Shown here piece after piece: positions 1 through 64,000 of a stretch of 64,000 nt of DNA. Position 1 is the stretch's first letter; each line of letters begins with the position of its first letter. Source of the DNA: a virus. The notes under the pieces are model-generated. The model saw only the letters and a list, made by a program, of their open reading frames with translations, was not told the DNA's origin and did not search any database. The stretch spans positions 15,298-79,297 of the IMG/VR virus record IMGVR_UViG_3300030430_004991, one strand, 5' to 3'. The position numbers were made by a program, and so were the translations under genes.

Positions 1-24
1 ATTTCTTTTCTTATTGTGTTTCAT
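1..24 (-). CDS. 5' end of next gene (MKHNKKRN...), runs off the window
   Basis: ATG at 24 overlaps the portal 3' end, the frame is open to the window edge, and there is a purine-rich AAGGTGAAAGAAG upstream plus a late-type motif at 82-89. Confidence 0.65.
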
Positions 25-1975
25 CTTCTTTCACCTTTTTTAATAAACTTTCAATTAAGGTATCAACCTGCTTTGATGTATTAAATAGTTTCTGTTCTTC
101 GTTATCGTTTATACTTTCTGTTACACCACGAGCGAGAGAGTCTAGTCCACCAAACCCTGATTTTCCATGGAATGTAGTTCTGTACGTGTTTCCATATTCA
201 CCTGTGGCTTGATTTTTTATGTTTTTGCTTCTTCCGCCTTTAGAATAAGAGGTCTGGTGTCTTTTGTATTTTCCTCTTTTATATTTTGGCTCATCGTCTT
301 TTTTAGCCGGTGGCTCAGCCAGAATGACATCATCTTTTTCATCACCCCCTTCGGCACCAGGGCTCTTGTCCCCAGCAGCCTTGTCTCCGGCATCACCACC
401 TAAATCTAATCCTCCACCAGCATCACCACCAGCGCCTAAGTCTCCAAGGCCTCCAGCGTCACCACCTGTGCCTAGGTCTCCAAGACCACCACCGCCACCT
501 CCAGCATCGGCTCCACCTTGAGCAGCGGCCTCTAGGTTAGCAGAGAATTTTTTATCGTAGAACATTTCTCGCTGCATGCGTATGAACTCTTCTTCGGATA
601 ATCCAAATAAATGTTCTGCTACCCAGCGTTTTGAGAAATAACCATCTGTTGCATTTCCAGCAACAGAGAATTTTTTATCCCAATGTTCGAGTTCTTGTAA
701 TTCTGCAATTTTTGAAGGATTGTTCAGCCCTAAGTCAAAAGACAATAAATCTTCATTTCGAAAGCCCATTGTAAAAAGATGGATGATACCAATCTTTTCA
801 AGTTCGGCAATAACAACCCTTTGTAGTCTTTGAATTGTTCTAGCAAATCTAATGTCTTTTTGTGCCAACGTTGTTTTATCTTCTGTGGCACCATCACCCA
901 TTGTAAGGTAGGATTGTGGTATCTTAAGAGCAGAAAATAATTTGTCCCTCAAATATTTAACATCTTCAATTGTTGCAGTCATAGCACCACCGGGTAGGTT
1001 TACAATATCAGTGTTTGACGTACCACGAATAGGAATGTAATAATCTTCTTCAATTGACAGAGGATTGTAACGAAGATCAAGTCGTCCTGTTTTAGGATCG
1101 GTAACTTGATGTCGCTTCATTTGTGTCATTACTTTTTGCATGTATTGCTCCACATCTTGTGGTGGAATGTTTCCAACATCAATTTTGAATACACGCCTCT
1201 CAGGTGCTCGAACAATACGATAGGCCATCATAGCATCTTCTAGAAGTGTAAGTTGTCTCCAGATTCTGCGTGCCGGTTCTAGAACAGAAGTTCCGTATGG
1301 GGCATGCTTATCGTTGCCAAGAATGCGAAAATGAGCCATTTGCCAATTTTCCAATGTCATACCAGCAGAGTTCCACTGATATTGCACATAATTTGGATTT
1401 GAATCATCTTCGCCTTCCAATCTTTCAATCTCTTGCGGAGGAAGACCAATACATGCTCTAATACCAGTGGCCTCTTCGATATCTAAGTAAAGAAATAAAT
1501 CTCCGTATTTACACATAGTTCGGCACCACCCAAAAAGATTGTGATTAATGTTGAGAACATTATGGTACAAATCATTTAGAATAGTTTTTATTTCGTCGTT
1601 CGGACACTTAATTCTTAACATCGGCTGTAGTGCGGAGTGCGTTGTCATTTCGTCTGCGTAAATATCTAACGATGACGCGCATTCCGGTGTATATTCCATT
1701 TGATCAAAATCAATATAGCGCTCTGCTCTATTTCTATTAGAGATCATGTTAATAGCCATGATGTTCATGGGGTTGTATTCTTGTTTTTTAAATTGTTTAC
1801 CACTAGCAGATGTAAATCTAGAGGAATACATGTCTAGTTGTCGTCTTCTAAGTTGACGACCTTGTTGTGTCCTTCTTTGTGTTATAGGTCCTGAAAATAA
1901 TCTTGTTAAAGATCTAAAAAGACTATTCTCTGGATTATAGGGATTCTTTCCCAAATTTCTTTTTTTCTTAGCCAT
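11..1975 (-). CDS. gp20: T4 gp20-like portal protein with Gly-rich C-terminal extension
   Basis: Portal motifs LEDAMMAYRIVRAPERRVFKIDVGN, EEDYYIP, EDVKYLRDKLFSALKIP, DIRFARTIQRLQ; adjacent to terminase. Confidence 0.95.
   Translation of the reverse strand: MAKKKRNLGKNPYNPENSLFRSLTRLFSGPITQRRTQQGRQLRRRQLDMYSSRFTSASGKQFKKQEYNPMNIMAINMISNRNRAERYIDFDQMEYTPECASSLDIYADEMTTHSALQPMLRIKCPNDEIKTILNDLYHNVLNINHNLFGWCRTMCKYGDLFLYLDIEEATGIRACIGLPPQEIERLEGEDDSNPNYVQYQWNSAGMTLENWQMAHFRILGNDKHAPYGTSVLEPARRIWRQLTLLEDAMMAYRIVRAPERRVFKIDVGNIPPQDVEQYMQKVMTQMKRHQVTDPKTGRLDLRYNPLSIEEDYYIPIRGTSNTDIVNLPGGAMTATIEDVKYLRDKLFSALKIPQSYLTMGDGATEDKTTLAQKDIRFARTIQRLQRVVIAELEKIGIIHLFTMGFRNEDLLSFDLGLNNPSKIAELQELEHWDKKFSVAGNATDGYFSKRWVAEHLFGLSEEEFIRMQREMFYDKKFSANLEAAAQGGADAGGGGGGLGDLGTGGDAGGLGDLGAGGDAGGGLDLGGDAGDKAAGDKSPGAEGGDEKDDVILAEPPAKKDDEPKYKRGKYKRHQTSYSKGGRSKNIKNQATGEYGNTYRTTFHGKSGFGGLDSLARGVTESINDNEEQKLFNTSKQVDTLIESLLKKVKEDETQ
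82..89 (-). promoter_or_regulatory. putative late promoter ACTATTTA
   Basis: Same motif as in intergenic sites 8325, 17296, 36634, 46311, 61569; about 58 nt upstream of the ATG at 24. Confidence 0.45.
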
Positions 1976-4125: not shown

Positions 4126-4495
4126 TTTTAGGTCTCCATCCTTTTTTCCATCGTTCTTCGCGTCCTTCTACATATTGAATGTAACATTTTTCACAACAGT
4201 CAAACTTTGACATATAAACATCATCATTGGACTTGAAAGAGTAAACATTGCATACAGGACAAGAACGTTTAGAATTCTTCGTAATTAGTTTCTTTGGGAT
4301 AAAAACTCCATTTATCTCTTCCTCATCGTTTACACCAGATTCTTCGTATTTGTAGAATCCTTTGAGTTCTTCTAAATATTCTTTTTCTTTTTCATCGTTC
4401 CAACCCTTTTTTGGGTGCTGGATTGTTTCTGCGCCGTATTTTTCTGTTATGGCTTTCTCAACCTTTACGGCATAATTTGGATCTTTACTTTTCAT
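4118..4495 (-). CDS. hypothetical protein with C4-type zinc finger
   Basis: CPVC...DCCEKC; overlaps both neighbours. Confidence 0.75.
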   Translation of the reverse strand: MKSKDPNYAVKVEKAITEKYGAETIQHPKKGWNDEKEKEYLEELKGFYKYEESGVNDEEEINGVFIPKKLITKNSKRSCPVCNVYSFKSNDDVYMSKFDCCEKCYIQYVEGREERWKKGWRPKNG

Positions 4496-4898
4496 ATTTT
4501 CTTTGCCATTCTTTTGAAATTTTGTCCTCTTTTATTGGCCCACCCTTAGCCCAAGTTCTACATGCTCTGGCGGAGTGGCACTTAAAATGATGCATCCAAC
4601 AATAACCTAATCTTCCTTCTCCATCAGAAGTAGGTCCAGGCATACACTCATCCATTCTAGGTGATATGTCAAACGCCGTACAGTTTCCACACAGAGATTT
4701 TTTTGCAGCCTCTTCTGTTGTGTTCCAATACTCCGCAATGTCTTTCCAGTAATCACCGGGCTCATCAACATTAAGTGGGCCGTACTGAATGTGTTCTGCT
4801 TTTATAGAGGCGTCACGATTTTTTGTATTTAATTTTAAATCTTGTGTCGCCTCAGGGCAAATCATTTTTTTAAGTCTTTTTAAAATTCTTATTTTCAT
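4485..4898 (-). CDS. Cys-rich hypothetical protein (HiPIP-like Cys spacing) with MKIRILK N-terminus
   Basis: CGNC...GYC...C...CRTW; 7 Cys. Confidence 0.7.
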   Translation of the reverse strand: MKIRILKRLKKMICPEATQDLKLNTKNRDASIKAEHIQYGPLNVDEPGDYWKDIAEYWNTTEEAAKKSLCGNCTAFDISPRMDECMPGPTSDGEGRLGYCWMHHFKCHSARACRTWAKGGPIKEDKISKEWQRKYEK

Positions 4899-5287
4899 TG
4901 AGTTAATCCCGGCTTGACAGCATACATGATCCCAACTGAAATTCCCGCACCGGCAATAAATCCACCAATGAGCGGCCAGATGTTATTCTGGGGCCTCAGT
5001 TCATCTATGTGTTCATCTTGTAATCTAATTAGTTCGTTAAGTTTCTCAATCTCCGCGTCTGTTTTGGACTTCAAGACATCATAGCGATATTTCTCTAAAA
5101 TTTTGTTCTCATTAACTTTAAACTCAACAAGCGCATCACATGTTAAATCTTTTGTTACACTATCTTCAACAAGGATTCTCATCGCTGCTTCGTTCAATAG
5201 GCGACCATTCCATGGAACAGTTTCACCTGTTTTCATATCTTTGTATTTTGGCTCTTCCGCAAACAGAAGAGAAATTAAAAATATCAT
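4895..5287 (-). CDS. membrane protein, possible non-canonical spanin component
   Basis: Short hydrophobic N-terminus MIFLISLLFA, helical middle, C-terminal TM IWPLIGGFIAGAGISVGIMYAV; 4-nt overlap with the i-spanin-like gene. Confidence 0.5.
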   Translation of the reverse strand: MIFLISLLFAEEPKYKDMKTGETVPWNGRLLNEAAMRILVEDSVTKDLTCDALVEFKVNENKILEKYRYDVLKSKTDAEIEKLNELIRLQDEHIDELRPQNNIWPLIGGFIAGAGISVGIMYAVKPGLTQ

Positions 5288-5613
5288 TCTTCCCTCTCAA
5301 TGCCTTTTGATTTTAAGAAATCCTCGGTCTTAACCTTCTTCGAGTCTCTTAAAAACTTATGCTTTTTTTCCTCGAAATTTAGAACGTTTTCAGCAATAGA
5401 AGCGTCTTTGGTTTCCACGAGGTCTTCCAAGTCCTCCACAAGTTCTTCGCGTTGTTTTTCTTCTAAATCTTTCCATTTTTCATAAAATTTTACTTTCTGT
5501 TTCTTTGCGTCTTTTGAGCGTCCAAGCAAATAGAAAGCAATGACAGTAATGATCATTAAGATCCACTGCCAATACTTTATTACAAAATTTACGGTTTTTG
5601 CCCACCAAGTCAT
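5284..5613 (-). CDS. N-terminal TM plus charged coiled-coil protein (i-spanin-like)
   Basis: TM WQWILMIITVIAFYLLG followed by an E/K-rich helix; close to the holin-like gene. Confidence 0.5.
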   Translation of the reverse strand: MTWWAKTVNFVIKYWQWILMIITVIAFYLLGRSKDAKKQKVKFYEKWKDLEEKQREELVEDLEDLVETKDASIAENVLNFEEKKHKFLRDSKKVKTEDFLKSKGIEREE

Positions 5614-5960
5614 TGGTTTTCCGCATTCTCAATTTTCTGCAGAACCATAGCTTTAACGTCTTCGTCAAAATCACTTAAATTATCGCTGACATCCTCGACA
5701 CTAGAAATGTCCCTTAAATCGATTTCTGCGATCGAGCCCCCGGCTTCTATGTATAGGATACCGTAGTCACCATAAACGTCCGCGAGATTTTCCAAACTGG
5801 CGACACCAGTTTCACTCTTGGTATATTTTAATGCTGCTTCAATACTGTCCTCGTCTTGTTCGTCTTGTGAAATCACATCAACATGGACACCATCCGATTC
5901 TGTTAGTCTTGTCAATTCTTCTTTGATTAATTTTTTTAATAATTTTGTTGTTAATTTCAT
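5610..5960 (-). CDS. acidic hypothetical protein with MKLTTKLLKKLIKEEL leader (putative internal head protein)
   Basis: Start moved to ATG 5960 (AAGGA upstream, just after the previous stop); basic amphipathic leader followed by an acidic body. Confidence 0.7.
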   Translation of the reverse strand: MKLTTKLLKKLIKEELTRLTESDGVHVDVISQDEQDEDSIEAALKYTKSETGVASLENLADVYGDYGILYIEAGGSIAEIDLRDISSVEDVSDNLSDFDEDVKAMVLQKIENAENQ

Positions 5961-5964
5961 TTTT

Positions 5965-6228
5965 TTATCCTTTCCAAACTTTAGCAACGTCAATAACTGA
6001 CTGTCCACCAATGTACATGGCAGCAATCATCGCCCAAGTGTCAGGATCGAGTCCGGACCAGATGAGCAAAGCAGTTGCACTAGCAAAAACAAGAAGTTTA
6101 CGAGATACGGCTTTTCCAAGAGCCTCATCAACTACTCCTAGCTTTTGTTCTTTGCAACATTCGCAATGTTCGCAGCAATCACACTTGTGGTCATGCTCGC
6201 AATTTTCCTCACAATTTTCATTATGCAT
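5965..6228 (-). CDS. holin-like two-TM protein with Cys/His-rich N-terminus
   Basis: SRKLLVF-TM1-short loop-TM2-basic tail; first 25 aa contain 8 Cys and 4 His; GGAG SD. Confidence 0.55.
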   Translation of the reverse strand: MHNENCEENCEHDHKCDCCEHCECCKEQKLGVVDEALGKAVSRKLLVFASATALLIWSGLDPDTWAMIAAMYIGGQSVIDVAKVWKG

Positions 6229-8296
6229 TTCTGTTCTCCTTTAAAATTTTAATTTTTATTCTTTTTCTATTTTCTTGAACACTAAAGCTATTGCCTGGTG
6301 TTCCTATATTGGTTTGATACCAATTTATAACATCTTGTTCCGTGAAGTTTAAAAACTTGTAAAATTTATTGATCTTCTCAGGAGTAGCTACAGTACCTTC
6401 TAAGTTTTCTTTTTCCTTTAAAGCAGCGTCTATAAGTTTTTTTGCTGCTTCTTTATCAATGTTATTCTGTCTAAGATAGTTAAATTCTAAATCTTGCACG
6501 AATTTGTCGACTATTTTTTTTCTAATTTCTCCAGCGCCCTTTGTCTTTTCAAACCCTATGGCCGCAGGAGTTCCAATACCAGCGTGTGTTTTTAGACTTT
6601 TTGTCTTTTTGCCAAGAAATACAGGGCTATTTTTAACAATTCTGTACGTGCGAATAATTTGTTTGTTGTCCATCATTTCAACAAAGTCATAAGTTTTTTC
6701 ATAGATTTCATAAAATTTTTGCATTGCCGGTATAAAAACAGCGGCTAATTTTTCACAATCATCATCTGCTGTGTGTGTTTGTTTTGGAGCATTTTCGATA
6801 AATGCTTTCATCAGAGTCTCTAGTTTTCCTTTTGATTTTCCAGATTTTTTTAAATTTTTTAAAATTACCCTTACTTCATCAATTTGAGGCTTGATCTTTA
6901 TAGTGTTGTGTTCACCGATCTCTATAAAATCTTCTATAGCTTTTTTTAGTTTTTTTGTTCTCTCTTCATCTGGTTGTTGTGTATCTAGTATTTCTTGCAT
7001 CTCTTTAATTCGAAAATGTGTACGATATGCTAATCCATAAAAATACACTAGTGTTTTAAAATATTTTATCATCAATGAGAATAAAAATCTCGTATCATAC
7101 ACATAAGAGTTACGAAAATTTTGTGTATTGTTAATCCCGTGAAACTCACATCTTGCAATTACAAAAGGATTGTCAAAAGAAATTATGTTTTGACCAACTA
7201 ATACATAGTCACCATTTGGTTGTGATTGATTCGTTGATGGCGCTCCTTGTTGATCAATAAACTTCATCATGCCCTCAAGCGCTTCTTTCTCTGAGACAGT
7301 GCCTTCGTAACCTTTATTACGATATTTTTTTAACGGAAATTCATCATAATTTGTAAATACTTTATTTTCTTCTGTGGTTTGTTTGAGAAAAAGAATAATT
7401 TTTTCAACAGTACTTTTTACAAAGTCATTCCCTCTATTGTTATAGTATGTTGAAATGCCGCCATCAACAGTATCCTCATTGAAAATATTGTGATAAAAAA
7501 AGATCAAATCTTCTTTAGATGGATTTGTGTTCTCAATTATTTTTTTTAATCTTTCTTTCGGAAGGAGAGGTCCTTCTTCGCCTTGTCCGTCTTTATCTTT
7601 TTCAATCTTTTCGCTTTCTTCTTCGTCTTTATCTTTTTCAATCTTTTCGCTTTCTTCTTCGTCTTTATCTTTTTCAATCTTTTCGCTTTCTTCTTCTTCA
7701 AAATCAATTACTGATATATATTTCTCTACGAATTTTTTAAACGCACTAGCAGTGCCTTTTTTGCCAAGTAGAGCCTTTTTTTTGTTTTTTAGGTTATAGT
7801 GAAGAAAAATATGAAAAAATAATCCTAAAATTGATTTTACATCATCTCTATTTTTAGCGGGTATTTCAAGTTGATCGTCTCGTATAAATTCTTTAAATTC
7901 GGTATATTCATTTTCTGGTGTTTGGTCTAAAATTTTAGCTCTTTTTTCTTTGGCTTTTTTGGATCTATCACTATATTCATCTGTTATGTCGGCCTTTGCG
8001 ACATAGTAATCATTTGGGTTTTCTGCGCTAATTGTGCTTGGGTCACCGTTTGGAGAATATTTTAAAATAGCGATTTGGTGAATCATGTCTGAAATTTGTC
8101 CGAATTCTCCTCTTTTTCTTCGAAGACCTGTTGTTTCAAGGTCGTAAAACAAAAGATCTTTGTTAAATAAACTCTCTAATACTTCTTTTTCTTTAATTAA
8201 AAGACCTAAGTTTCCAAAAAGTTCTTCTACTGGTAGAAGACTTGTCGGAGATTTTCCGGTCCTCTCTGATAATTGTTTTTTGATTCTAATTTTCAT
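6221..8296 (-). CDS. DEDDh 3'-5' exonuclease (DnaQ-like) with large insertions
   Basis: ExoI FYDLETTGL, ExoII VGQNIISFD, YDT, ExoIII HTADDD. Confidence 0.85.
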   Translation of the reverse strand: MKIRIKKQLSERTGKSPTSLLPVEELFGNLGLLIKEKEVLESLFNKDLLFYDLETTGLRRKRGEFGQISDMIHQIAILKYSPNGDPSTISAENPNDYYVAKADITDEYSDRSKKAKEKRAKILDQTPENEYTEFKEFIRDDQLEIPAKNRDDVKSILGLFFHIFLHYNLKNKKKALLGKKGTASAFKKFVEKYISVIDFEEEESEKIEKDKDEEESEKIEKDKDEEESEKIEKDKDGQGEEGPLLPKERLKKIIENTNPSKEDLIFFYHNIFNEDTVDGGISTYYNNRGNDFVKSTVEKIILFLKQTTEENKVFTNYDEFPLKKYRNKGYEGTVSEKEALEGMMKFIDQQGAPSTNQSQPNGDYVLVGQNIISFDNPFVIARCEFHGINNTQNFRNSYVYDTRFLFSLMIKYFKTLVYFYGLAYRTHFRIKEMQEILDTQQPDEERTKKLKKAIEDFIEIGEHNTIKIKPQIDEVRVILKNLKKSGKSKGKLETLMKAFIENAPKQTHTADDDCEKLAAVFIPAMQKFYEIYEKTYDFVEMMDNKQIIRTYRIVKNSPVFLGKKTKSLKTHAGIGTPAAIGFEKTKGAGEIRKKIVDKFVQDLEFNYLRQNNIDKEAAKKLIDAALKEKENLEGTVATPEKINKFYKFLNFTEQDVINWYQTNIGTPGNSFSVQENRKRIKIKILKENRNA
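7589..7696. repeat. perfect 3 x 36-bp in-frame tandem repeat (EEESEKIEKDKD)
   Basis: gtctttatctttttcaatcttttcgctttcttcttc at 7589, 7625 and 7661. Confidence 0.97.
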
Positions 8297-8299
8297 AAT

Positions 8300-8333
8300 A
8301 AAAAATCCTATTTAGCTTTTACACTAAATAGGA
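8300..8333 (-). terminator. 10-bp hairpin plus U6 tract (terminator / RBS-sequestering stem) containing a late motif
   Basis: Minus strand reads TCCTATTTAG-TGTAAAAG-CTAAATAGGA-TTTTTT, 10 nt after the Mre11-Rad50 stop. Confidence 0.75.
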
Positions 8334-8342
8334 CGTTATTTG

Positions 8343-11300
8343 TTAAATGTTTACCTTGGCATAGCCATCAATTTTATCAATGTCTATCGTCATGTCCACC
8401 ACATCTTTTAGATGATCAAGGTGAGAGATAATCAAAACTGTTTTGAATTGGTTCTTTATCATCTGCAATAGTCTTGTGAACCCTTCCATGTGTTCTTGAT
8501 CTAATGCCGTTGCCGGTTCGTCAAGAATAAACAGTTCGGACTTTGGAAGATTGGTTATCGCAATCATCGCAAGACGTATGGCCATCGAAGCAATTGTCTT
8601 TTCTGCTCCTGATCCCATGGACAACGGACGAGCCGCATAGTTGGGATGTTTGATGGAGAGTTCAAGTTTGTTGTCATGATTCTCAAAGAACACTTCAAAG
8701 TCAACAATGTTGGCTAAGATCTTTGCGATCTCTTGATTGATAATCGGTAGCTTTTGCTGAATGATCTCGTATGAAATACCATTAGCATGCATGCAAGTCG
8801 TGTAGATGTCGAAAGCACGATACTCGTTCATAACATCTTTGTATTCATTCTTCTCGTTGTAAAGACCACGAATAACTTCTTTCATTGCCGCTTCTTCCAC
8901 AAGATACTCTTGAGAAAGTTTATTGCATTCCTTCAGTGTTACCTTGTTCTCTTTAATTTTCTTTATAAGAGCCTTTTGGTCTCCGTACAAAGATTCCTTA
9001 TTCTCGATAGCTTCACGATTATCTTCATATTCTTTAGCTTTCGCTTCGAGAGCATCAATCTCGTTAGTTAACAAAGCAATGGTTGCTTCGTTTTTCTGAA
9101 TAGACATTTTTTGTCTTTCCATGTTAATCTCACAAGAGTCAATCTCAGATCTAAGATCATTAAACTTTTGGATGTTATTTTGAATTGTTTTAATGTCATA
9201 CTCTTCAAGTTTAACTGTCGCTTGATGGAGAGACTCGGCGAGATCATCTAACAAATTCATGTTATAGGGCAGATCTGCTTTTGCTTTCTCTGCTTGTTTC
9301 ACAAACTCATTGTCACAACAGAACTCACAGTTTGGATCATACTTGTGATTATGAAGCATCGCTGCTGTTTTGTCTAAGTTTTTTAACACGGTCTTCTGGT
9401 GCTTCACTTGTTGCTCAAAGGCTTTGACAAGTTCTTCTTGGTGCTTTGCTTCTTTTAGCAGAGACATTAGGCGATCATATTGTTTACTGTCGACCTGTTC
9501 ACATGTTTGTTCATAAAACTTTTCTAGTCTCTCAACATGTTCTTGTGAATGTAAATTCTGTGAGAGCAGTTTAGTTTTCTTTGTTTTCTTAAACGCTATC
9601 TCTTTGGAAACTTGATTGATGTCAATAATCTCCGCAGGAATTGCGTCGATTGTTTTCTTAACCTCCGCAAGTTCAAGTTCAAACTTTTCTATAGAACAAG
9701 TCAGTTTTTCACATTTATTAACCTGCTCGTCGATGTCCATTCGAATGTCCTCTAGTGTTTCTGTTTTTTTGCGTATTTGTTCGTCAAACTTCTTGCTCTC
9801 CATGCGCTTAATTACACCACGAAGATCAGCAGCATCCTTACGAGCCAATTTATACTTTTGATCAAAGATCTGCAGGTCTAGAAATTTAGCGATAATTTCT
9901 TTTCGTTTAGTAGAGCCCTCTCGCAAGAAAGACATAGAGTCTAGTTGAGATGCCATTGACGTTAAAAAGAAGTCATCAATTGTACCGAAGTGCTTACGAA
10001 TGTTAGCATCGGTTTCGTTTCTGGTTGTACCATTCTTTGACTCAAAGATACCAGCAGTTGTTTTAGAAAAATCTAGATCTACTTTGGATTCTATTGTTTC
10101 TTTCCCTTTTAGTTTCTTTGTGTACTTATTAAGGTTTCGAGTAATCTCGAAAGCGTCATGACCTGCTTCAAGTTTTATTTTACACTTGGCATACTGTTTG
10201 TTTTGGTTGATGATGTGAACATTCTTTCGCTCTCCTTTCGAAGTTGTATTATAAATGTTAAATAACACACTGTCGATAATAGAAGACTTTCCTGAATAAT
10301 TTTTACCAAAGATTCCGACAAGTCCGGATAATTTTTCAAAATTAATCTTATTCTTCTCGCCGTAGTTGAAGAGGTTATCCCACTCAATCTCTTTAATTTT
10401 CCAAACAACATTACGTGATACCTCCTCTGATTCTTCAACAATTTGATTGTATTTTTTATTTAACTCTAAAATCTTATCCATAACGCCATCGTCCATGTCA
10501 AGTTCGCTGCAATACTGTTTTATGTATTTTTCTTGAACAGAAAGATCTCGCAGGTTCTCATTCAAAACTGCTTTACCTATCAAAGATGTAGACGAAGAGT
10601 TGGTGGTGCCATTGTTAATAAAAGAAACAGAATAGGGTTGCCATTTCTTTTGGCAATAATCACACGCTGCTCTTAATTTCATAGGCGAAATGTTAGAAGA
10701 GGCACGTATTCTAAGACGACAGCCCTTTGGCACTATTGTGTTGGGTACTTGTCCTTCCGGTGTTAAGTCTATTGTCACGAACGGTCTGGGGTTTAGTACT
10801 GAGACATGCTGACAATCCCAATCGTATTTATCTCGTATGTTCCACATGAGAAAACCTTTGTTAATTGACTCGCCAAAGTTTTGTTGAATCGTAGAGCCAG
10901 CATATCTTACTCGTCCTTTGAGATCCATTTTCTGTTGCTTGTGAATGTCACCCAGCATGCTAAAGTCAAAATCGCTGAAAATATCAATAGAATCTTCGCC
11001 TTCTTCAATAGTGTAACCTTGTGAGGTTTGGCATCCGTGAATAGACCCGTGATACAAGCCGATATTAATACACTCTCTGTTAGTCGGTTTAACCCAGTTT
11101 TCTCTATCAAAGACCGATAGAACGTTGAGAGTGATCTTTTCATTTATTTTTGTTTCTCCGGAATTTTTAAGAAGATGAATATTTTTGTGACCCAATGCAT
11201 CTACAATCGGAGAAATTGCATCCTGCCTAGTGTCGTTCTTAAGATTACCATCATGGTTTCCTAGTATAATATAAGTAGGAGCAATGTCTCCCAAGTTATG

Positions 11301-11492
11301 CAAAAAACTTGCACACATTTGGAAAAATTCCGGTGATAATTGCGTTTTAGTGTGTGCGATGTCACCGGTGTGTACGATAATGTCGGGAGACATTTGCCGC
11401 AGTTTTTTATAAAGATCTTCGAACGCTAGTTTGTATTCGTAGTGATACTTTAAATTTCTAATGTGTGTATCTGATATATGTGCTATTTTCAT
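8343..11492 (-). CDS. Mre11/SbcD-Rad50/SbcC (gp47-gp46) fusion nuclease-ATPase
   Basis: Phosphoesterase motifs SDTH, GDIAH, GNHD, YHG, GDIH; Walker A GKNYSGKSS; coiled coil with CEFC hook; signature SMGSGAE; Walker B FILDEP; ISH. Confidence 0.93.
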   Translation of the reverse strand: MKIAHISDTHIRNLKYHYEYKLAFEDLYKKLRQMSPDIIVHTGDIAHTKTQLSPEFFQMCASFLHNLGDIAPTYIILGNHDGNLKNDTRQDAISPIVDALGHKNIHLLKNSGETKINEKITLNVLSVFDRENWVKPTNRECINIGLYHGSIHGCQTSQGYTIEEGEDSIDIFSDFDFSMLGDIHKQQKMDLKGRVRYAGSTIQQNFGESINKGFLMWNIRDKYDWDCQHVSVLNPRPFVTIDLTPEGQVPNTIVPKGCRLRIRASSNISPMKLRAACDYCQKKWQPYSVSFINNGTTNSSSTSLIGKAVLNENLRDLSVQEKYIKQYCSELDMDDGVMDKILELNKKYNQIVEESEEVSRNVVWKIKEIEWDNLFNYGEKNKINFEKLSGLVGIFGKNYSGKSSIIDSVLFNIYNTTSKGERKNVHIINQNKQYAKCKIKLEAGHDAFEITRNLNKYTKKLKGKETIESKVDLDFSKTTAGIFESKNGTTRNETDANIRKHFGTIDDFFLTSMASQLDSMSFLREGSTKRKEIIAKFLDLQIFDQKYKLARKDAADLRGVIKRMESKKFDEQIRKKTETLEDIRMDIDEQVNKCEKLTCSIEKFELELAEVKKTIDAIPAEIIDINQVSKEIAFKKTKKTKLLSQNLHSQEHVERLEKFYEQTCEQVDSKQYDRLMSLLKEAKHQEELVKAFEQQVKHQKTVLKNLDKTAAMLHNHKYDPNCEFCCDNEFVKQAEKAKADLPYNMNLLDDLAESLHQATVKLEEYDIKTIQNNIQKFNDLRSEIDSCEINMERQKMSIQKNEATIALLTNEIDALEAKAKEYEDNREAIENKESLYGDQKALIKKIKENKVTLKECNKLSQEYLVEEAAMKEVIRGLYNEKNEYKDVMNEYRAFDIYTTCMHANGISYEIIQQKLPIINQEIAKILANIVDFEVFFENHDNKLELSIKHPNYAARPLSMGSGAEKTIASMAIRLAMIAITNLPKSELFILDEPATALDQEHMEGFTRLLQMIKNQFKTVLIISHLDHLKDVVDMTIDIDKIDGYAKVNI

Positions 11493-11500
11493 GTTACCTC

Positions 11501-11851
11501 CTAATAGTTTCTAGTTTTATAGCGACCACGGCCACTGTGGATTTTGCCAACAAAGCCAACTCGCTTCATTTCTTCTTTCCACTCTTTGCCGTGGTTGTGA
11601 TAAGGTCTTTCCTCATAAAAAACTTCAACAGCGTGATGGCACATCTCGTGCAACAAAATGTTGAGTTTTTGGTAGTGCGTCAGTTTTTTGTCTATTTCTA
11701 TGTAAGACTCTGTCCCTTCTTCTTCATCAGGGTAATGATAAAGACCTTCCGCACGCTCAGCGCTTAAGTCTCTTATTTTTACAGGGATCTTTGTTAGTTT
11801 TCCATCCCAATATTTTTTATTAAATTCATTAAACTTATTTGTCCAGTACAT
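11501..11851 (-). CDS. SprT-like zinc metalloprotease
   Basis: FNKKYWDGKL N-terminus, LLHEMCH, HNHGKEWKEEM. Confidence 0.85.
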   Translation of the reverse strand: MYWTNKFNEFNKKYWDGKLTKIPVKIRDLSAERAEGLYHYPDEEEGTESYIEIDKKLTHYQKLNILLHEMCHHAVEVFYEERPYHNHGKEWKEEMKRVGFVGKIHSGRGRYKTRNY

Positions 11852-11880
11852 GTTTCCTCCTCAAGAATCTGTATACATAT

Positions 11881-11909
11881 ATAATATCACGTTATCTTCG
11901 ACTTGTCAA
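11881..11909 (-). promoter_or_regulatory. sigma70-type early promoter (SprT / Mre11-Rad50)
   Basis: TTGACA-17 nt-TATTAT with TG extended -10. Confidence 0.85.
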
Positions 11910-11919
11910 GTATTTTTTT

Positions 11920-11926
11920 CTATTTA
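11920..11926 (+). promoter_or_regulatory. putative late promoter CTATTTA for the plus-strand gene
   Basis: Matches the late motif; lies upstream of GGAGG and GTG 11955. Confidence 0.4.
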
Positions 11927-11954
11927 TTTATAACAAGACTTGGGAGGGTTAGAT

Positions 11955-12131
11955 GTGGAATATGTCGTTTTTGGTATTATTGTTATTGTTGCTGGTGGTC
12001 TTGCCGGTTATGAATTGATAGAGGGTATTATTGCGGGTATTAAGTTAGATGGAGATGATGAAGAAATTTTTGCTCCAATTGCAGTCTTCTCTTTGTTAGT
12101 TTTTTTTGCCGGCTTATCATATTTTGGCTAA
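11955..12131 (+). CDS. small two-TM membrane protein, the only plausible plus-strand gene
   Basis: GGAGG 7 nt before GTG 11955; fills an otherwise empty gap; two hydrophobic segments around an acidic loop. Confidence 0.55.
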   Translation: MEYVVFGIIVIVAGGLAGYELIEGIIAGIKLDGDDEEIFAPIAVFSLLVFFAGLSYFG

Positions 12132-13052
12132 TTGGTTGTAAAAATTAATTTCATCTAAATCTGGCTCTATCGCTTGAGACATTCTAGATAGAAACTGTTT
12201 GCGTGTCATAGACCCTACATCTTCAACATTCGAAGTATCAATAATCTTGACATCGACATCGTATTTGAATAGGGACTTTATCATGTAGTCTTGCTTCTTC
12301 TTAGCATCTTCATCTAAAGCAAGATACACTGGGGAATCATTAAGAACAATCGCTTGAAATAGCTTACTCTCTTCGCGCAATGTTGAGCCAAGAATAGGAA
12401 TTGCATTTTGTCCGGCGATAATTGCATCGAACAAACCTTCCACCAAGACAACCGGTTCATCCCAATCTACAAACAATTCATTAAACACAACGTTTTTACT
12501 TATTGGAGGATTCAAGTACTTCATTCTGTGTCCTACATAAGAACGAGCAATAAAATAGTTGAGATTACCTGAGTTATTAAATGACGGCACAATTATTCTT
12601 CCGCGATAGCGTCCCTCAGGACAATACCCAATCTTCCACATAAGTATTTCTTTCTTGGTGATTCCTCTTTCGTATAGGTATTCCAAAGGCGCCTTAGAAG
12701 TCTTTGGCAGTCTTTTGTTACACAAAGACACGAAATGCGGTGGTAGTTCCGTAACTTGTTCGATTTCTTCATCATTCATCTCCATAAACATTTGGTCAAA
12801 TTCAGAAAGATCTAGACGGCCATCGAGTTCTAGCCATTTTTGTTTTTGTTGATAAGTACCAAACTTTCGTACAAGTCTGTAAATATTTTTACCGCGCGTA
12901 TCACAAACCCAACATTTAAATGCATTAACACCAAAATTGATTGACATTTTCTTTTTATGATGTCCACAAAATGGACATTCAAATAAAAATTCACTTGATG
13001 ATTGCCTATAGCCACCAAGAATGTCTCGTATAATTCTTAATTTTTCTTCCAT
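12117..13052 (-). CDS. DNA primase (zinc finger plus TOPRIM)
   Basis: CPFC..H...CWVC zinc finger, EYLYERGI, RIIVP, VEGLFDA, ALDED. Confidence 0.9.
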   Translation of the reverse strand: MEEKLRIIRDILGGYRQSSSEFLFECPFCGHHKKKMSINFGVNAFKCWVCDTRGKNIYRLVRKFGTYQQKQKWLELDGRLDLSEFDQMFMEMNDEEIEQVTELPPHFVSLCNKRLPKTSKAPLEYLYERGITKKEILMWKIGYCPEGRYRGRIIVPSFNNSGNLNYFIARSYVGHRMKYLNPPISKNVVFNELFVDWDEPVVLVEGLFDAIIAGQNAIPILGSTLREESKLFQAIVLNDSPVYLALDEDAKKKQDYMIKSLFKYDVDVKIIDTSNVEDVGSMTRKQFLSRMSQAIEPDLDEINFYNQLAKI

Positions 13053-13072
13053 GTTTCCTCCGTCTCAAATAC

Positions 13073-13101
13073 ATATTATCACGGAGTCTAAAAATTGTCA
13101 A
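13073..13101 (-). promoter_or_regulatory. sigma70-type early promoter (primase)
   Basis: TTGACA-17 nt-TAATAT with TG extended -10. Confidence 0.8.
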
Positions 13102-13613
13102 ATATTTATTTTGGAAAATCCAGCCAATGCCACAACAATCGCATCTGCCATGTCATCTGTCCCGGGTTTAGGGTTTCCATGCCTAGTTAACTCTACTATA
13201 AAATGTTTTGGATATTTATTTTCAACCCATTCAATAATTTTCTTTTTAGTATCTTCGCCACGCTTAATTTTGAGACCAACAAGGCCCCTAGCTTTATTCG
13301 CCGCGATAAGTTCTGGGTTACGGCCAAATACTCTACGAACTGCAAAAGAACACATGCCATTAAATCTCTGGAGTTTTGCCATGGTACCAGCAGTTGTTTT
13401 ACCACCACCAAACATTGTGAAAGGTTCTTCTACGAAAACGTTTTTAATTTTATACTCTTTACTAATACCTTTTAAGAATTGGAAAAAAATTTCTGCTCTG
13501 TCTTCTAACTGCAGGGGCTTAAACTTCATTACATTGTGTTCAATTAAATTCTTATCATAATCTAAAATACAATAACCTATTTTACTTGTGCTAACATCTA
13601 AACCTAAAATCAT
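13098..13613 (-). CDS. ruvC: RuvC-like Holliday junction resolvase
   Basis: MILGLDVS, VFVEE, DDMADA catalytic motifs; 171 aa. Confidence 0.85.
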   Translation of the reverse strand: MILGLDVSTSKIGYCILDYDKNLIEHNVMKFKPLQLEDRAEIFFQFLKGISKEYKIKNVFVEEPFTMFGGGKTTAGTMAKLQRFNGMCSFAVRRVFGRNPELIAANKARGLVGLKIKRGEDTKKKIIEWVENKYPKHFIVELTRHGNPKPGTDDMADAIVVALAGFSKINI

Positions 13614-13629
13614 AAAAAACCTCTAATTT

Positions 13630-13658
13630 ATTATAACACGTTTTTATAGATTTGTCAA
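13630..13658 (-). promoter_or_regulatory. sigma70-type early promoter (RuvC)
   Basis: Consensus TTGACA-17 nt-TATAAT with TG extended -10. Confidence 0.88.
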
Positions 13659-13661
13659 GTA

Positions 13662-14072
13662 TTATTTTGGGGGAACGTAAGGTTTTTCTTTCTGCACTAA
13701 ACTTTCGGCCCATTTTAAATCCTCTGGTGATGCTTTTTTAAGAAAATCATCAATTGCCTTCAATAAATTTTGGGCATCTAAGTTTAATCTATCGGGTTTT
13801 TCATTCTCAGGTGTTTTTGACACGATTTCCAAATCTTCTAGGGCCTTTGAGTATCCTATCGCTTTATCAATGTCTTTGGTTTTTTTTACTCTATTTTTTG
13901 CAAAAGCGTGTGCTACTTCAACTGTTTTAGCGTCATACCCCTCAACTCCGGCTTGTGCTGGTCTCCCAAGCATTCCGCCCATAGCCAAGCCACCAGCCAA
14001 AGCAATGTCTTTTAAGGACTCTTCTATTTTTTTTATAGTTTCCTTGTTTTCCTTTAAAATTCTTATTTTCAT
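13662..14072 (-). CDS. hypothetical protein with MKIRILKE leader (putative internal head protein)
   Basis: AGGAG SD; leader shared with the 4898 and 8296 genes; Gly/Ala hydrophobic stretch after IEES. Confidence 0.75.
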   Translation of the reverse strand: MKIRILKENKETIKKIEESLKDIALAGGLAMGGMLGRPAQAGVEGYDAKTVEVAHAFAKNRVKKTKDIDKAIGYSKALEDLEIVSKTPENEKPDRLNLDAQNLLKAIDDFLKKASPEDLKWAESLVQKEKPYVPPK

Positions 14073-62896: not shown

Positions 62897-64000
62897 TTAT
62901 CTTCCTTTGTGCATTAATTCTCTTATGAGAGGTTTTAATTTTCTTGCTATCTTTTCTTCTAGGTCTATAAGTTTCTTGAATTCTTCCTTGGAAAAGAGTT
63001 CTATAAATTTCTTTTTTGCCAAATCATAGACTTGTTCTTTGGCTGGTTTGGCTAACCAAAAATTCCCTTTTTCATTTCCATTGATAATATTTATCAATTC
63101 TTCTTTATCTTCTTTTGTTGCATTTTTTATAGTAGCCCTAGCAACCTTTTCAAGTTTTTTGCGCCAAGGACCTTTTAGTTTATCGGATACATACTTGTTT
63201 CCAAAATACCGTCTATCTATTTCTAAAAAATCTTTAACTGTTTCTGCGTATTTTATGTTTTTTATTGCGTACCTTGTCTTCTGTATTTTTTTCTTGTGCT
63301 TTATGTCCCGATGTGTAAATAAATATGAAACAATTTGAAAAAAACTTGGGTCCTCGTAGTAATCCTCTTCTTTCTTTAGTTGATCTAGTATTTCTTCAAA
63401 TTGATCGTCTGGAATGTCTTCGAGATTGACTTTTTTACTTAGTTCTTTCGCTGTGTCTTTTGGAGTTTCATTATTATCGGCTGCTTTTTTCACTGTGTTG
63501 ACTATGATTTCAGTAGGATTTTCCTCAACCGGTTGTAATTCTAGAGGAATATCATCAAGAGAACTGTTGTGATCTTGTGCAGTTGTTGTCATAAATTTTT
63601 TAAATTCCTTGTTCGCTTTGTTTCTCTGTACTCTTAATAGTGCTCTTGCTATATCTTTCTTTTTGTCTCCATCAATCAAATTAAAAAATTCTTCCGCTTT
63701 TTTTAGTTCTATTCCTGTTAATTCTACAATTAGTTTAATCTTTTCTTGATCGGTTTCCGGAAATTCTCCGATCTTTTGCAAAGTCTCATTGTCAACTGCT
63801 TCGCTTATACGTCCGTCATGTATGAATTTATGAAGTTGGTTTAGCGCAAAGGCCTCGTCAGATGTGAATTGTTCTTCATCCTTTAGTGGAACTAATCTTC
63901 CTAGATGCGCGTCAAAAAAATTATAAAAATTCATACTGGCCATGGATGCATCAATCGGCACAAATTCTTCTGAATCTTCCTCTGTAAAATCATAGTCGAA
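62897..64000 (-). CDS. 3' part of a charged helical hypothetical protein (5'-truncated by the window)
   Basis: Frame stays open from 63961 to the window end (13 more codons); C-terminus LEEKIARKLKPLIRE. Confidence 0.75.
   Translation of the reverse strand, partial: FDYDFTEEDSEEFVPIDASMASMNFYNFFDAHLGRLVPLKDEEQFTSDEAFALNQLHKFIHDGRISEAVDNETLQKIGEFPETDQEKIKLIVELTGIELKKAEEFFNLIDGDKKKDIARALLRVQRNKANKEFKKFMTTTAQDHNSSLDDIPLELQPVEENPTEIIVNTVKKAADNNETPKDTAKELSKKVNLEDIPDDQFEEILDQLKKEEDYYEDPSFFQIVSYLFTHRDIKHKKKIQKTRYAIKNIKYAETVKDFLEIDRRYFGNKYVSDKLKGPWRKKLEKVARATIKNATKEDKEELINIINGNEKGNFWLAKPAKEQVYDLAKKKFIELFSKEEFKKLIDLEEKIARKLKPLIRELMHKGR

Follow-up and report, generated by a model that had tools for sequence, protein, structure and literature searches.

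Short leader sequences on unrelated proteins of an uncultured marine T4-like phage: candidate capsid-targeting propeptides

The window analyzed here is a stretch of 64,000 nucleotides (nt) from IMG/VR virus record IMGVR_UViG_3300030430_004991, comprising bases 15298-79297 of a viral contig of 79,297 bp in total (CheckV completeness 38%), and nearly all of its genes lie on the minus strand. The source phage is an uncultured marine T4-like phage. Several of its proteins begin with one of two short leaders, which we call A (MKIRILK type) and B (MKLT..LK.LIKEE type), and the protein bodies that follow the leaders are unrelated to each other. We propose that the leaders may be T4-style capsid-targeting propeptides, the likeliest reading, although one on which we find ourselves evenly divided overall and which we hold more firmly for leader B than for leader A.

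The large terminase is gp17-like, its closest cultured relative being that of Flavobacterium phage immuto (46% identity), the portal belongs to the gp20 family, and a prohead protease gene of the gp21 type lies just outside the window (Table 1). The protease is 35% identical to T4 gp21, and its ELDHP and GISSRGLGS segments align with ELNHP and GVSSRGLGS of the T4 enzyme, with the His and Ser motifs kept. The phage thus encodes a gp21-family (Peptidase_S77) prohead protease, as T4-type capsid targeting requires. Relatives in IMG/VR reach 131-185 kb with terminase identities of 72-96%, and the relatives G001, G003 and G004 were pieced together for whole-genome comparison. Relatives also encode a gp23-type capsid protein, whose N-terminus (LLSKWGKTGLLEGL...LLENQAKELLRE/A), aligned by eye, is similar to the cleaved delta domain of T4, with ELLRE followed by A or S at the place of the T4 cut site.

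Leader A and copies at the C-terminus

Leader A, with the consensus MK[IV][RK]I[ILK]K(E), opens three minus-strand open reading frames (ORFs) of the window as MKIRI[LK]K, at 4898, 8296 and 14072; these encode a Cys-rich protein of 137 amino acids (aa), a 691-aa DEDDh exonuclease and a 136-aa protein. When the N-termini of the 66 minus-strand proteins were permuted column by column in 20,000 rounds, 0.006 proteins were expected to begin with MKI[RK]I[LK]K against the three found, and no round reached three. An unbiased statistic, a 4-mer at residues 2-5 common to at least three proteins, was attained in 28 of the 20,000 permutations, and the proteome as a whole contains KI[RK]I[LK]K four times, where shuffled proteins give 0.025. 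The motif is thus commoner than expected from composition in permuted and shuffled controls of the kind named beforehand. The recurrence of a terminal tag, which the first-pass annotation of the window had noticed, is therefore real and beyond chance, although its list had mixed leader A with the distinct leader B; its statement that the tagged bodies are unrelated agrees with BLAST.

In the phage lineage at least five families carry leader A, the others being a 961-aa protein and a kinase family, so that a short N-terminal leader is common to unrelated proteins. The strict pattern gave two matches in five related genomes, and looser matching was needed. Orthologs at 35-96% identity retain their leaders, and leader A is conserved in them while the flanking sequence varies. 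In the 137-aa family an alternating basic and hydrophobic start is retained in twelve orthologs, with beginnings such as MKIKILK, MRIRILK, MKVIIRK and MIRVKIKK. The 137-aa protein has no Pfam or PHROG match, and the AlphaFold model of the family (mean pLDDT 42) is unusable. The 136-aa ortholog starts MKIRILKENKK.

The exonuclease matches Pfam RNase_T (PF00929) at 2.8e-8 over residues 50-163, with 34.9 bits against a cut-off of 24. Its catalytic domain begins near residue 50, FYDLETTGL and HTADDD being visible in the sequence, and the profile match, together with the acidic motif with which the domain opens, places it in the DEDDh/RNase_T family. Its orthologs start MKIKIKKNSKVLKE and LKIKIKRSLKE, and the family shows MKIKIKK and LKIKIKR. 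Between the N-terminal domain and the remainder of the protein, an acidic 12-residue repeat (EEESEKIEKDKD) is present three times in tandem (window 7546-7707).

It is conceivable, if rather unlikely, that leader A is a common AT-rich protein start, made of AAA, ATA, AGA and TTA codons and forming a first strand or helix, which became enriched by drift in this lineage, and that leader B is the only true signal. The bare pattern is indeed common and non-specific in viral contigs, and the matches listed are scattered single hits that include many chance short ORFs, ThyX-like enzymes and giant-virus metagenome-assembled genomes; the dUTPase of G001 starts MRIRIKK; and the leader of the 137-aa family lacks a conserved Glu. 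Chance recurrence is difficult to reconcile with the permutation result and with the retention of the leader in orthologs whose flanks vary. Four of the five leader-A families have [LI]-x-E within residues 4-14, compared with 15% of all proteins, and the two leaders have a common core, [KRQ]-I-[IL]-K-E. Genes with A and B leaders are interleaved in a single cluster of G003 (9370 B, 10691 A, 13573 B, approximately 14284 A, 15444 B and 17455 A). The fixed promoter spacing of the A-tagged genes and the copy of leader A at the exonuclease C-terminus, both described below, also argue that leader A is a tag.

The C-terminal copy, RIKIKILKE, sits four residues from the end of the 691-aa protein. Three orthologs with 37-47% identity retain it, always between two hydrophobic-x-Glu sites, in forms that include LEE/NTKTLKIKILKE/NRNG... 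and IDE/NKSKNKIKIKVLRE/NKAP.... In the genomes G000 and G001 the DNA of this copy doubles as the ribosome-binding site (RBS) of the next gene, and 31 nt are identical between the two. This overlap, and the A/T-rich DNA of leader A, would suit an element that acts as RNA and not as peptide, such as an A/U-rich translation-initiation region or a binding site for a RegA-like repressor. We regard such an element as very improbable. The C-terminal copy and the downstream RBS are separate in L037, and constraint on the RBS thus cannot by itself account for the retention of the copy. Every instance of the motif is in frame, and there is no common register: the N-terminal copies come after the ATG, whereas at the C-terminus the motif precedes the next ATG. 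The three A genes have different upstream DNA, and synonymous codons are exchanged between their copies (ATA for ATT, for instance, or ATT for ATC), which indicates that the common element is the peptide; across hundreds of copies of leader B, too, the codons vary and the residues do not.

A further C-terminal item of the first-pass annotation, the tail of the large protein at 62897, is present and conserved but has to be set apart from both leaders. The tail KLKPLIRELMHKGR is retained in the positional ortholog of G001 (1382 aa, with a diverged body), which ends in ANKLKPLIRELLNKGK; G000 and G001 agree only in about the last 18 residues of this fast-evolving protein. A conserved 138-aa protein of the head module (L001 11722-12138), with the N-terminus ELKKILKPLIKEC, likewise has LKPLI[KR]E, at residues 10-16. 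Going by these sequences, the tail is a third conserved element, LKPLI[KR]E, that is neither leader A nor leader B.

Table 1. Positions of the leader-bearing proteins and related features. Positions are those of the window unless a locus is named.
Feature	Position	Strand or genome	Description
T4-type portal, gp20 family	11..1975	(-)	Pfam Portal_T4 at 3e-76
137-aa Cys-rich protein	4485..4898	(-)	leader A MKIRILKRLKK, residues 1-11, 4866-4898
116-aa acidic protein, pI 4.1	5610..5960	(-)	leader B MKLTTKLLKKLIKEELTRLTE at 5898-5960, contains I-K-E and L-T-E
691-aa DEDDh exonuclease (RNase_T family)	6221..8296	(-)	leader A MKIRIKKQLSE at 8264-8296
Exonuclease C-terminal leader-A copy	6221..6280	(-)	VQE/NRKRIKIKILKE/NRNA, hydrophobic-x-Glu on both sides
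Hairpin with CTATTTA (8325-8331)	8305..8334	(-)	ends upstream early block; motif 35 nt before exonuclease start
136-aa basic protein, Gly-rich hydrophobic segment	13662..14072	(-)	leader A MKIRILKE/NKE at 14049-14072
C-terminal fragment of large protein, truncated by contig end	62897..63943	(-)	tail ...ARKLKPLIRELMHKGR at 62897-62947
Peptidase_S77 prohead protease, gp21 type	L001 12704-13318	(-)	just outside window; PF03420 at 3.2e-32, phrog_207 at 9e-60
68-aa leader-B protein, between portal and protease genes	L001 13296-13502		leader MRLTAKRLKQLIKEEY
Protein kinase, leader A	L092:17455-18783	G003	behind late-type promoter motif
SAM lyase-family protein, leader B-like	L099:11803-12510	G003	behind late-type promoter motif
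SAM lyase-family protein, leader B-like	L086:19167-19967	G001	behind late-type promoter motif

Leader B in related genomes and public metagenomes

The consensus of leader B is MK[LI]T..LK.[LI]IKEE[LI], written MKITKSQLKQIIKEEL..., and within the window it heads the 116-aa acidic protein. A position weight matrix (PWM), built from copies that a DNA pattern had found in IMG/VR, gives this protein 28 bits. Its orthologs in L014 and L038 retain the leader on bodies that are only 35-42% identical, and a homologue search with residues 1-40 returned, among 27 candidates compared, only three near-identical proteins. In four genomes 26 proteins score at least -4 with the matrix at their N-terminus, the best of 156,198 internal positions reaching 2.4, and the bodies behind the leader show no BLAST relation to one another, orthologs apart.

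The same DNA pattern finds leader B at 120 or more loci in IMG/VR, often in tandem; the ORFs concerned have a median of 111 aa. In the DNA examined, 234 of 237 copies stood at the start of an ORF. Conservation extends to approximately residue 22, with the consensus MKITKSQLKQIIKEELExVLxE, and is followed by a linker rich in Gly, Asp and Glu, an arrangement that looks modular. All copies have I-[KR]-E at residues 12-14, which is partly imposed by the search pattern; a second [LIMV]-x-E, which the pattern does not bias, ends at residue 21 or 22 in 55% of them. Among 1.84 billion representatives from public metagenomes, 13,884 clusters match a profile of the first 30 residues at E <=1e-3. No Pfam family covers leader B, its PHROG hits (phrog_7338 and phrog_134) are weak, and a literature search for the leader motif strings found nothing relevant.

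Leader B keeps company with the prohead protease. All 32 of the leader-B contigs of at least 30 kb are fragments of large genomes, with no small complete genome among them, and Peptidase_S77 is encoded on 20, compared with an expectation of 12.7 that assumes one copy per genome and takes the CheckV completeness of the 32 contigs.

Rare database proteins among the top profile hits carry two to four copies of leader B in one ORF, and the junctions inside these fused proteins are informative. Of the 64 internal copies without Met, 27 have Glu at position -1, against a background of 10%, and position -3 is mostly taken by L, M, V or I, as in LRE/SKLTK and MWE/NKITK. A Glu preceded by a hydrophobic residue at -3 is what a Glu-specific protease obeying the L/I-x-E rule of T4 would require at an internal junction. 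Ahead of the internal copies that do bear Met stands E-[SN]-K, reminiscent of a translated Shine-Dalgarno region in fused tandem genes. The Glu at -3 of these copies was discounted, being probably part of such a region in tandem genes that are read through.

Promoters, cargo and the case for capsid targeting

Analysis of intergenic k-mers separated promoters of the form TTGACA-N17-TATAAT from a second type, CTATTTA. The latter is found at a distance of 23-60 nt ahead of the genes for the tail sheath (phrog_23 at 1.6e-60), the tail tube, and fibre-like and scaffold-like proteins. In the compared genomes it precedes 8 of the 26 leader-B genes and 3 of the 6 leader-A genes, against 32 of 564 other genes (Fisher 1.4e-4 and 4e-3, respectively), and at the A-tagged genes it stands at a fixed 23-36 nt. 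Co-occurrence of the tags with a late-type promoter motif is thus seen in these genomes and not clearly in the wider IMG/VR set considered below. A gp55-like factor was weakly detected (phrog_234 at 4e-3). In the window, the CTATTTA of the hairpin ahead of the exonuclease heads a gap-free run of genes that includes the genes of the 116-aa and 137-aa proteins and extends as far as the terminase and portal, and the hairpin arrangement recurs in G001. The 136-aa gene closes a late structural operon, and a perfect sigma70-type promoter for the early block (13658-13630) follows directly after it. Perfect sigma70-like promoters, such as the TTGACA-17-TATAAT at this place, stand ahead of a block of RuvC-like, primase, SprT-like and SbcCD genes, and over the window the promoter types alternate, sigma70-like for the early block and CTATTTA for the structural and tagged genes.

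The model that we favor for these observations is as follows. Proteins made late would use their leader to dock onto the scaffolding core while the prohead is being assembled, and would become enclosed in the prohead. The gp21-family serine protease would then cut after hydrophobic-x-Glu, at I-K-E or L-x-E in leader B and, in most leader-A proteins, after L-K-E or L-S-E. The released cargo would remain with the DNA and enter the next host cell; small acidic cargo may alternatively serve as core filler and then be degraded. Candidate cargo in the window would be the DEDDh exonuclease, the Cys-rich 137-aa protein, the 136-aa protein and the 116-aa acidic protein, and in relatives the S-adenosylmethionine (SAM) lyase and protein kinases. 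All four steps, from docking and packaging to cleavage and injection, are inferred.

The enzymes of the relatives give the model a possible purpose. In G003 a SAM lyase (PF23780, 1e-10) and a protein kinase (Pkinase, 6e-8) are tagged and have CTATTTA upstream, and four further tagged kinase-like proteins (approximately 1e-6) have the motif 23-25 nt upstream. In the tagged SAM lyase and kinases the catalytic domain starts 50-90 residues past the leader. The SAMase of T3 and the gp0.7 kinase of T7 are the first proteins made by those phages, and T4 packages Alt and IPI for the next infection. Early-acting enzymes behind a late-type promoter motif would make sense if they were packaged for the next infection, and the tagged kinase and SAM lyase are candidate pre-packaged enzymes of host takeover or anti-restriction. 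To the idea that the leaders are recognition sequences for a modifying enzyme, like the leaders of ribosomally synthesized and post-translationally modified peptides, we give hardly any credence: the cargo includes large folded enzymes, and Radical_SAM is present in one of five genomes of the lineage, one complete genome being without it. A link of the leaders to radical-SAM enzymes was rejected on the same count.

The first-pass annotation had called the tag a putative capsid-targeting or prohead-protease signal of the T4 kind, a reading that is partly supported. The gp21-family protease and the conservation of the leaders speak for this, whereas the missing Glu of the 137-aa family and the generic nature of leader A outside the lineage count against it. 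Several other observations weigh against capsid targeting. The label "late" for CTATTTA derives solely from the genes that follow it. In the wider IMG/VR set it stands directly upstream of 8% of leader-B genes against a background of 6%, with no clear enrichment, perhaps because most leader-B genes sit inside operons, and two of the three positives in the leader-A test are orthologs, leaving few independent cases. The use of the tag at either terminus was overstated: there are at least two leader classes, and one conserved C-terminal copy, that of the exonuclease, bears it out. The portal C-terminus, which had been listed as an instance, matches neither leader, and the portal is not among the high leader-B PWM scores. 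Leader B is absent, in a pattern search, from the cultured phages P-SSM2, Syn9, S-PM2, HTVC008M and immuto, and leader-B proteins found no tblastn match in cultured phages; the idea that cultured cyanophages carry leader B was not borne out by the pattern search. Finally, the leader-B bodies are mostly acidic (median pI 5.1), in contrast to the basic internal proteins of T4.

This last point would also suit a different function, in which the leaders are docking helices for some other late partner (for oligomerization or DNA binding, as a chaperone or protease adaptor, or in a membrane or lysis complex) and load nothing into the capsid. An amphipathic segment of about 22 residues followed by a flexible linker, as in leader B, suits any protein-protein docking, and the tagged genes of the window lie among small membrane proteins in a possible lysis cassette. 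We nevertheless consider such a helix improbable, since leader B is confined to genomes that encode a gp21-type protease, one tagged gene lies between portal and protease in the position of T4 gp67/gp68, Glu is enriched right before internal leader copies, and early-acting enzymes are found behind late-type promoter motifs.

The possible cassette concerns an 87-aa protein (window 5965-6228), with a Cys/His-rich N-terminus followed by hydrophobic segments; 43 related loci conserve it. It lies beside a pair of small membrane proteins (4895-5287 and 5284-5613), and the three may form a lysis cassette. Elsewhere on the same contig, outside the window, three neighboring paralogs of 118, 123 and 379 aa lie in the head/tail module (L001 9617-11486); they have in common an N-terminal GLNNVGSYQVAG-like motif and a C-terminal motif, and G003 has four of them in tandem.

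Returning to capsid targeting, a more far-reaching form of it can be put forward tentatively. Leader B could be the address label of a very large and undescribed cargo system in uncultured marine T4-like phages, in which thousands of unrelated small proteins and enzymes are loaded, clipped by the gp21-type protease and injected, so that anti-defense SAM lyases and kinases arrive ready-made. In this view leader A is a second, shorter label that serves the same machinery and could also act as a C-terminal propeptide. If the leaders do load the capsid, abundant ocean phages would bring ready-made proteins (nucleases, kinases, SAM lyases and many of no known role) into the host together with their DNA, as a large set that evolves fast. 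Leader B would then flag candidate injected proteins in the 13,884 protein clusters, which are unannotated, and would provide an easy means of loading such phages with foreign proteins. Should the leaders not load the capsid, a 22-residue leader that is this common and strictly N-terminal would still call for an explanation.

Comparison with known systems

The small acidic core proteins gp67 and gp68 of T4 are encoded between portal and protease and are cut by gp21. The 68-aa leader-B protein holds the same position between portal and protease, and the acidic leader-B bodies are closer to such core proteins than to the basic internal proteins. No sequence homology was detected between gp67/gp68 and the leader-B protein. 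T4 gp67 does contain DLIKEEK; this one brief resemblance to LIKEE may be due to chance.

In phiKZ, 201phi2-1 and SPN3US, ejection or inner-body proteins are cut by gp21-like proteases at S/A/G-x-Glu (PMC9026906). The likeness to these phages lies in the many head-internal proteins whose propeptides are removed after Glu by a diverged gp21 homolog. The preference at P3 is different, and their propeptides are long, unlike the short shared leaders described here.

The closest parallel is the capsid-targeting sequence of T4, which is found on IPI, IPII, IPIII and Alt and is removed by gp21. T4 propeptides of 10-19 residues direct proteins to the core (PMC9026906, PMC3012670), and gp21 cleaves after L/I-x-E (PMC9026906). 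The leaders described here are unrelated in sequence to MKTYQEFIAE, the identical leader of T4 ipII and ipIII, and leader B, at about 22 residues with two candidate cut sites, is longer. The family is also far larger, with its 13,884 metagenome clusters and 5-10 or more genes per genome; its bodies are mostly small and acidic, and it is a system known from sequence alone. Its scale and the enzymes that bear the leaders are what make it notable as a variant of the T4 sequence. In both cases a short N-terminal leader that begins with MK is attached to otherwise unrelated proteins, in a phage with homologs of gp20, gp21, gp23 and gp17; the hydrophobic-x-Glu with which the T4 leader ends has candidate counterparts in leader B and in most leader-A families. 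T4 Alt is processed at both ends (PMC9026906), a parallel to the exonuclease with its two copies of leader A.

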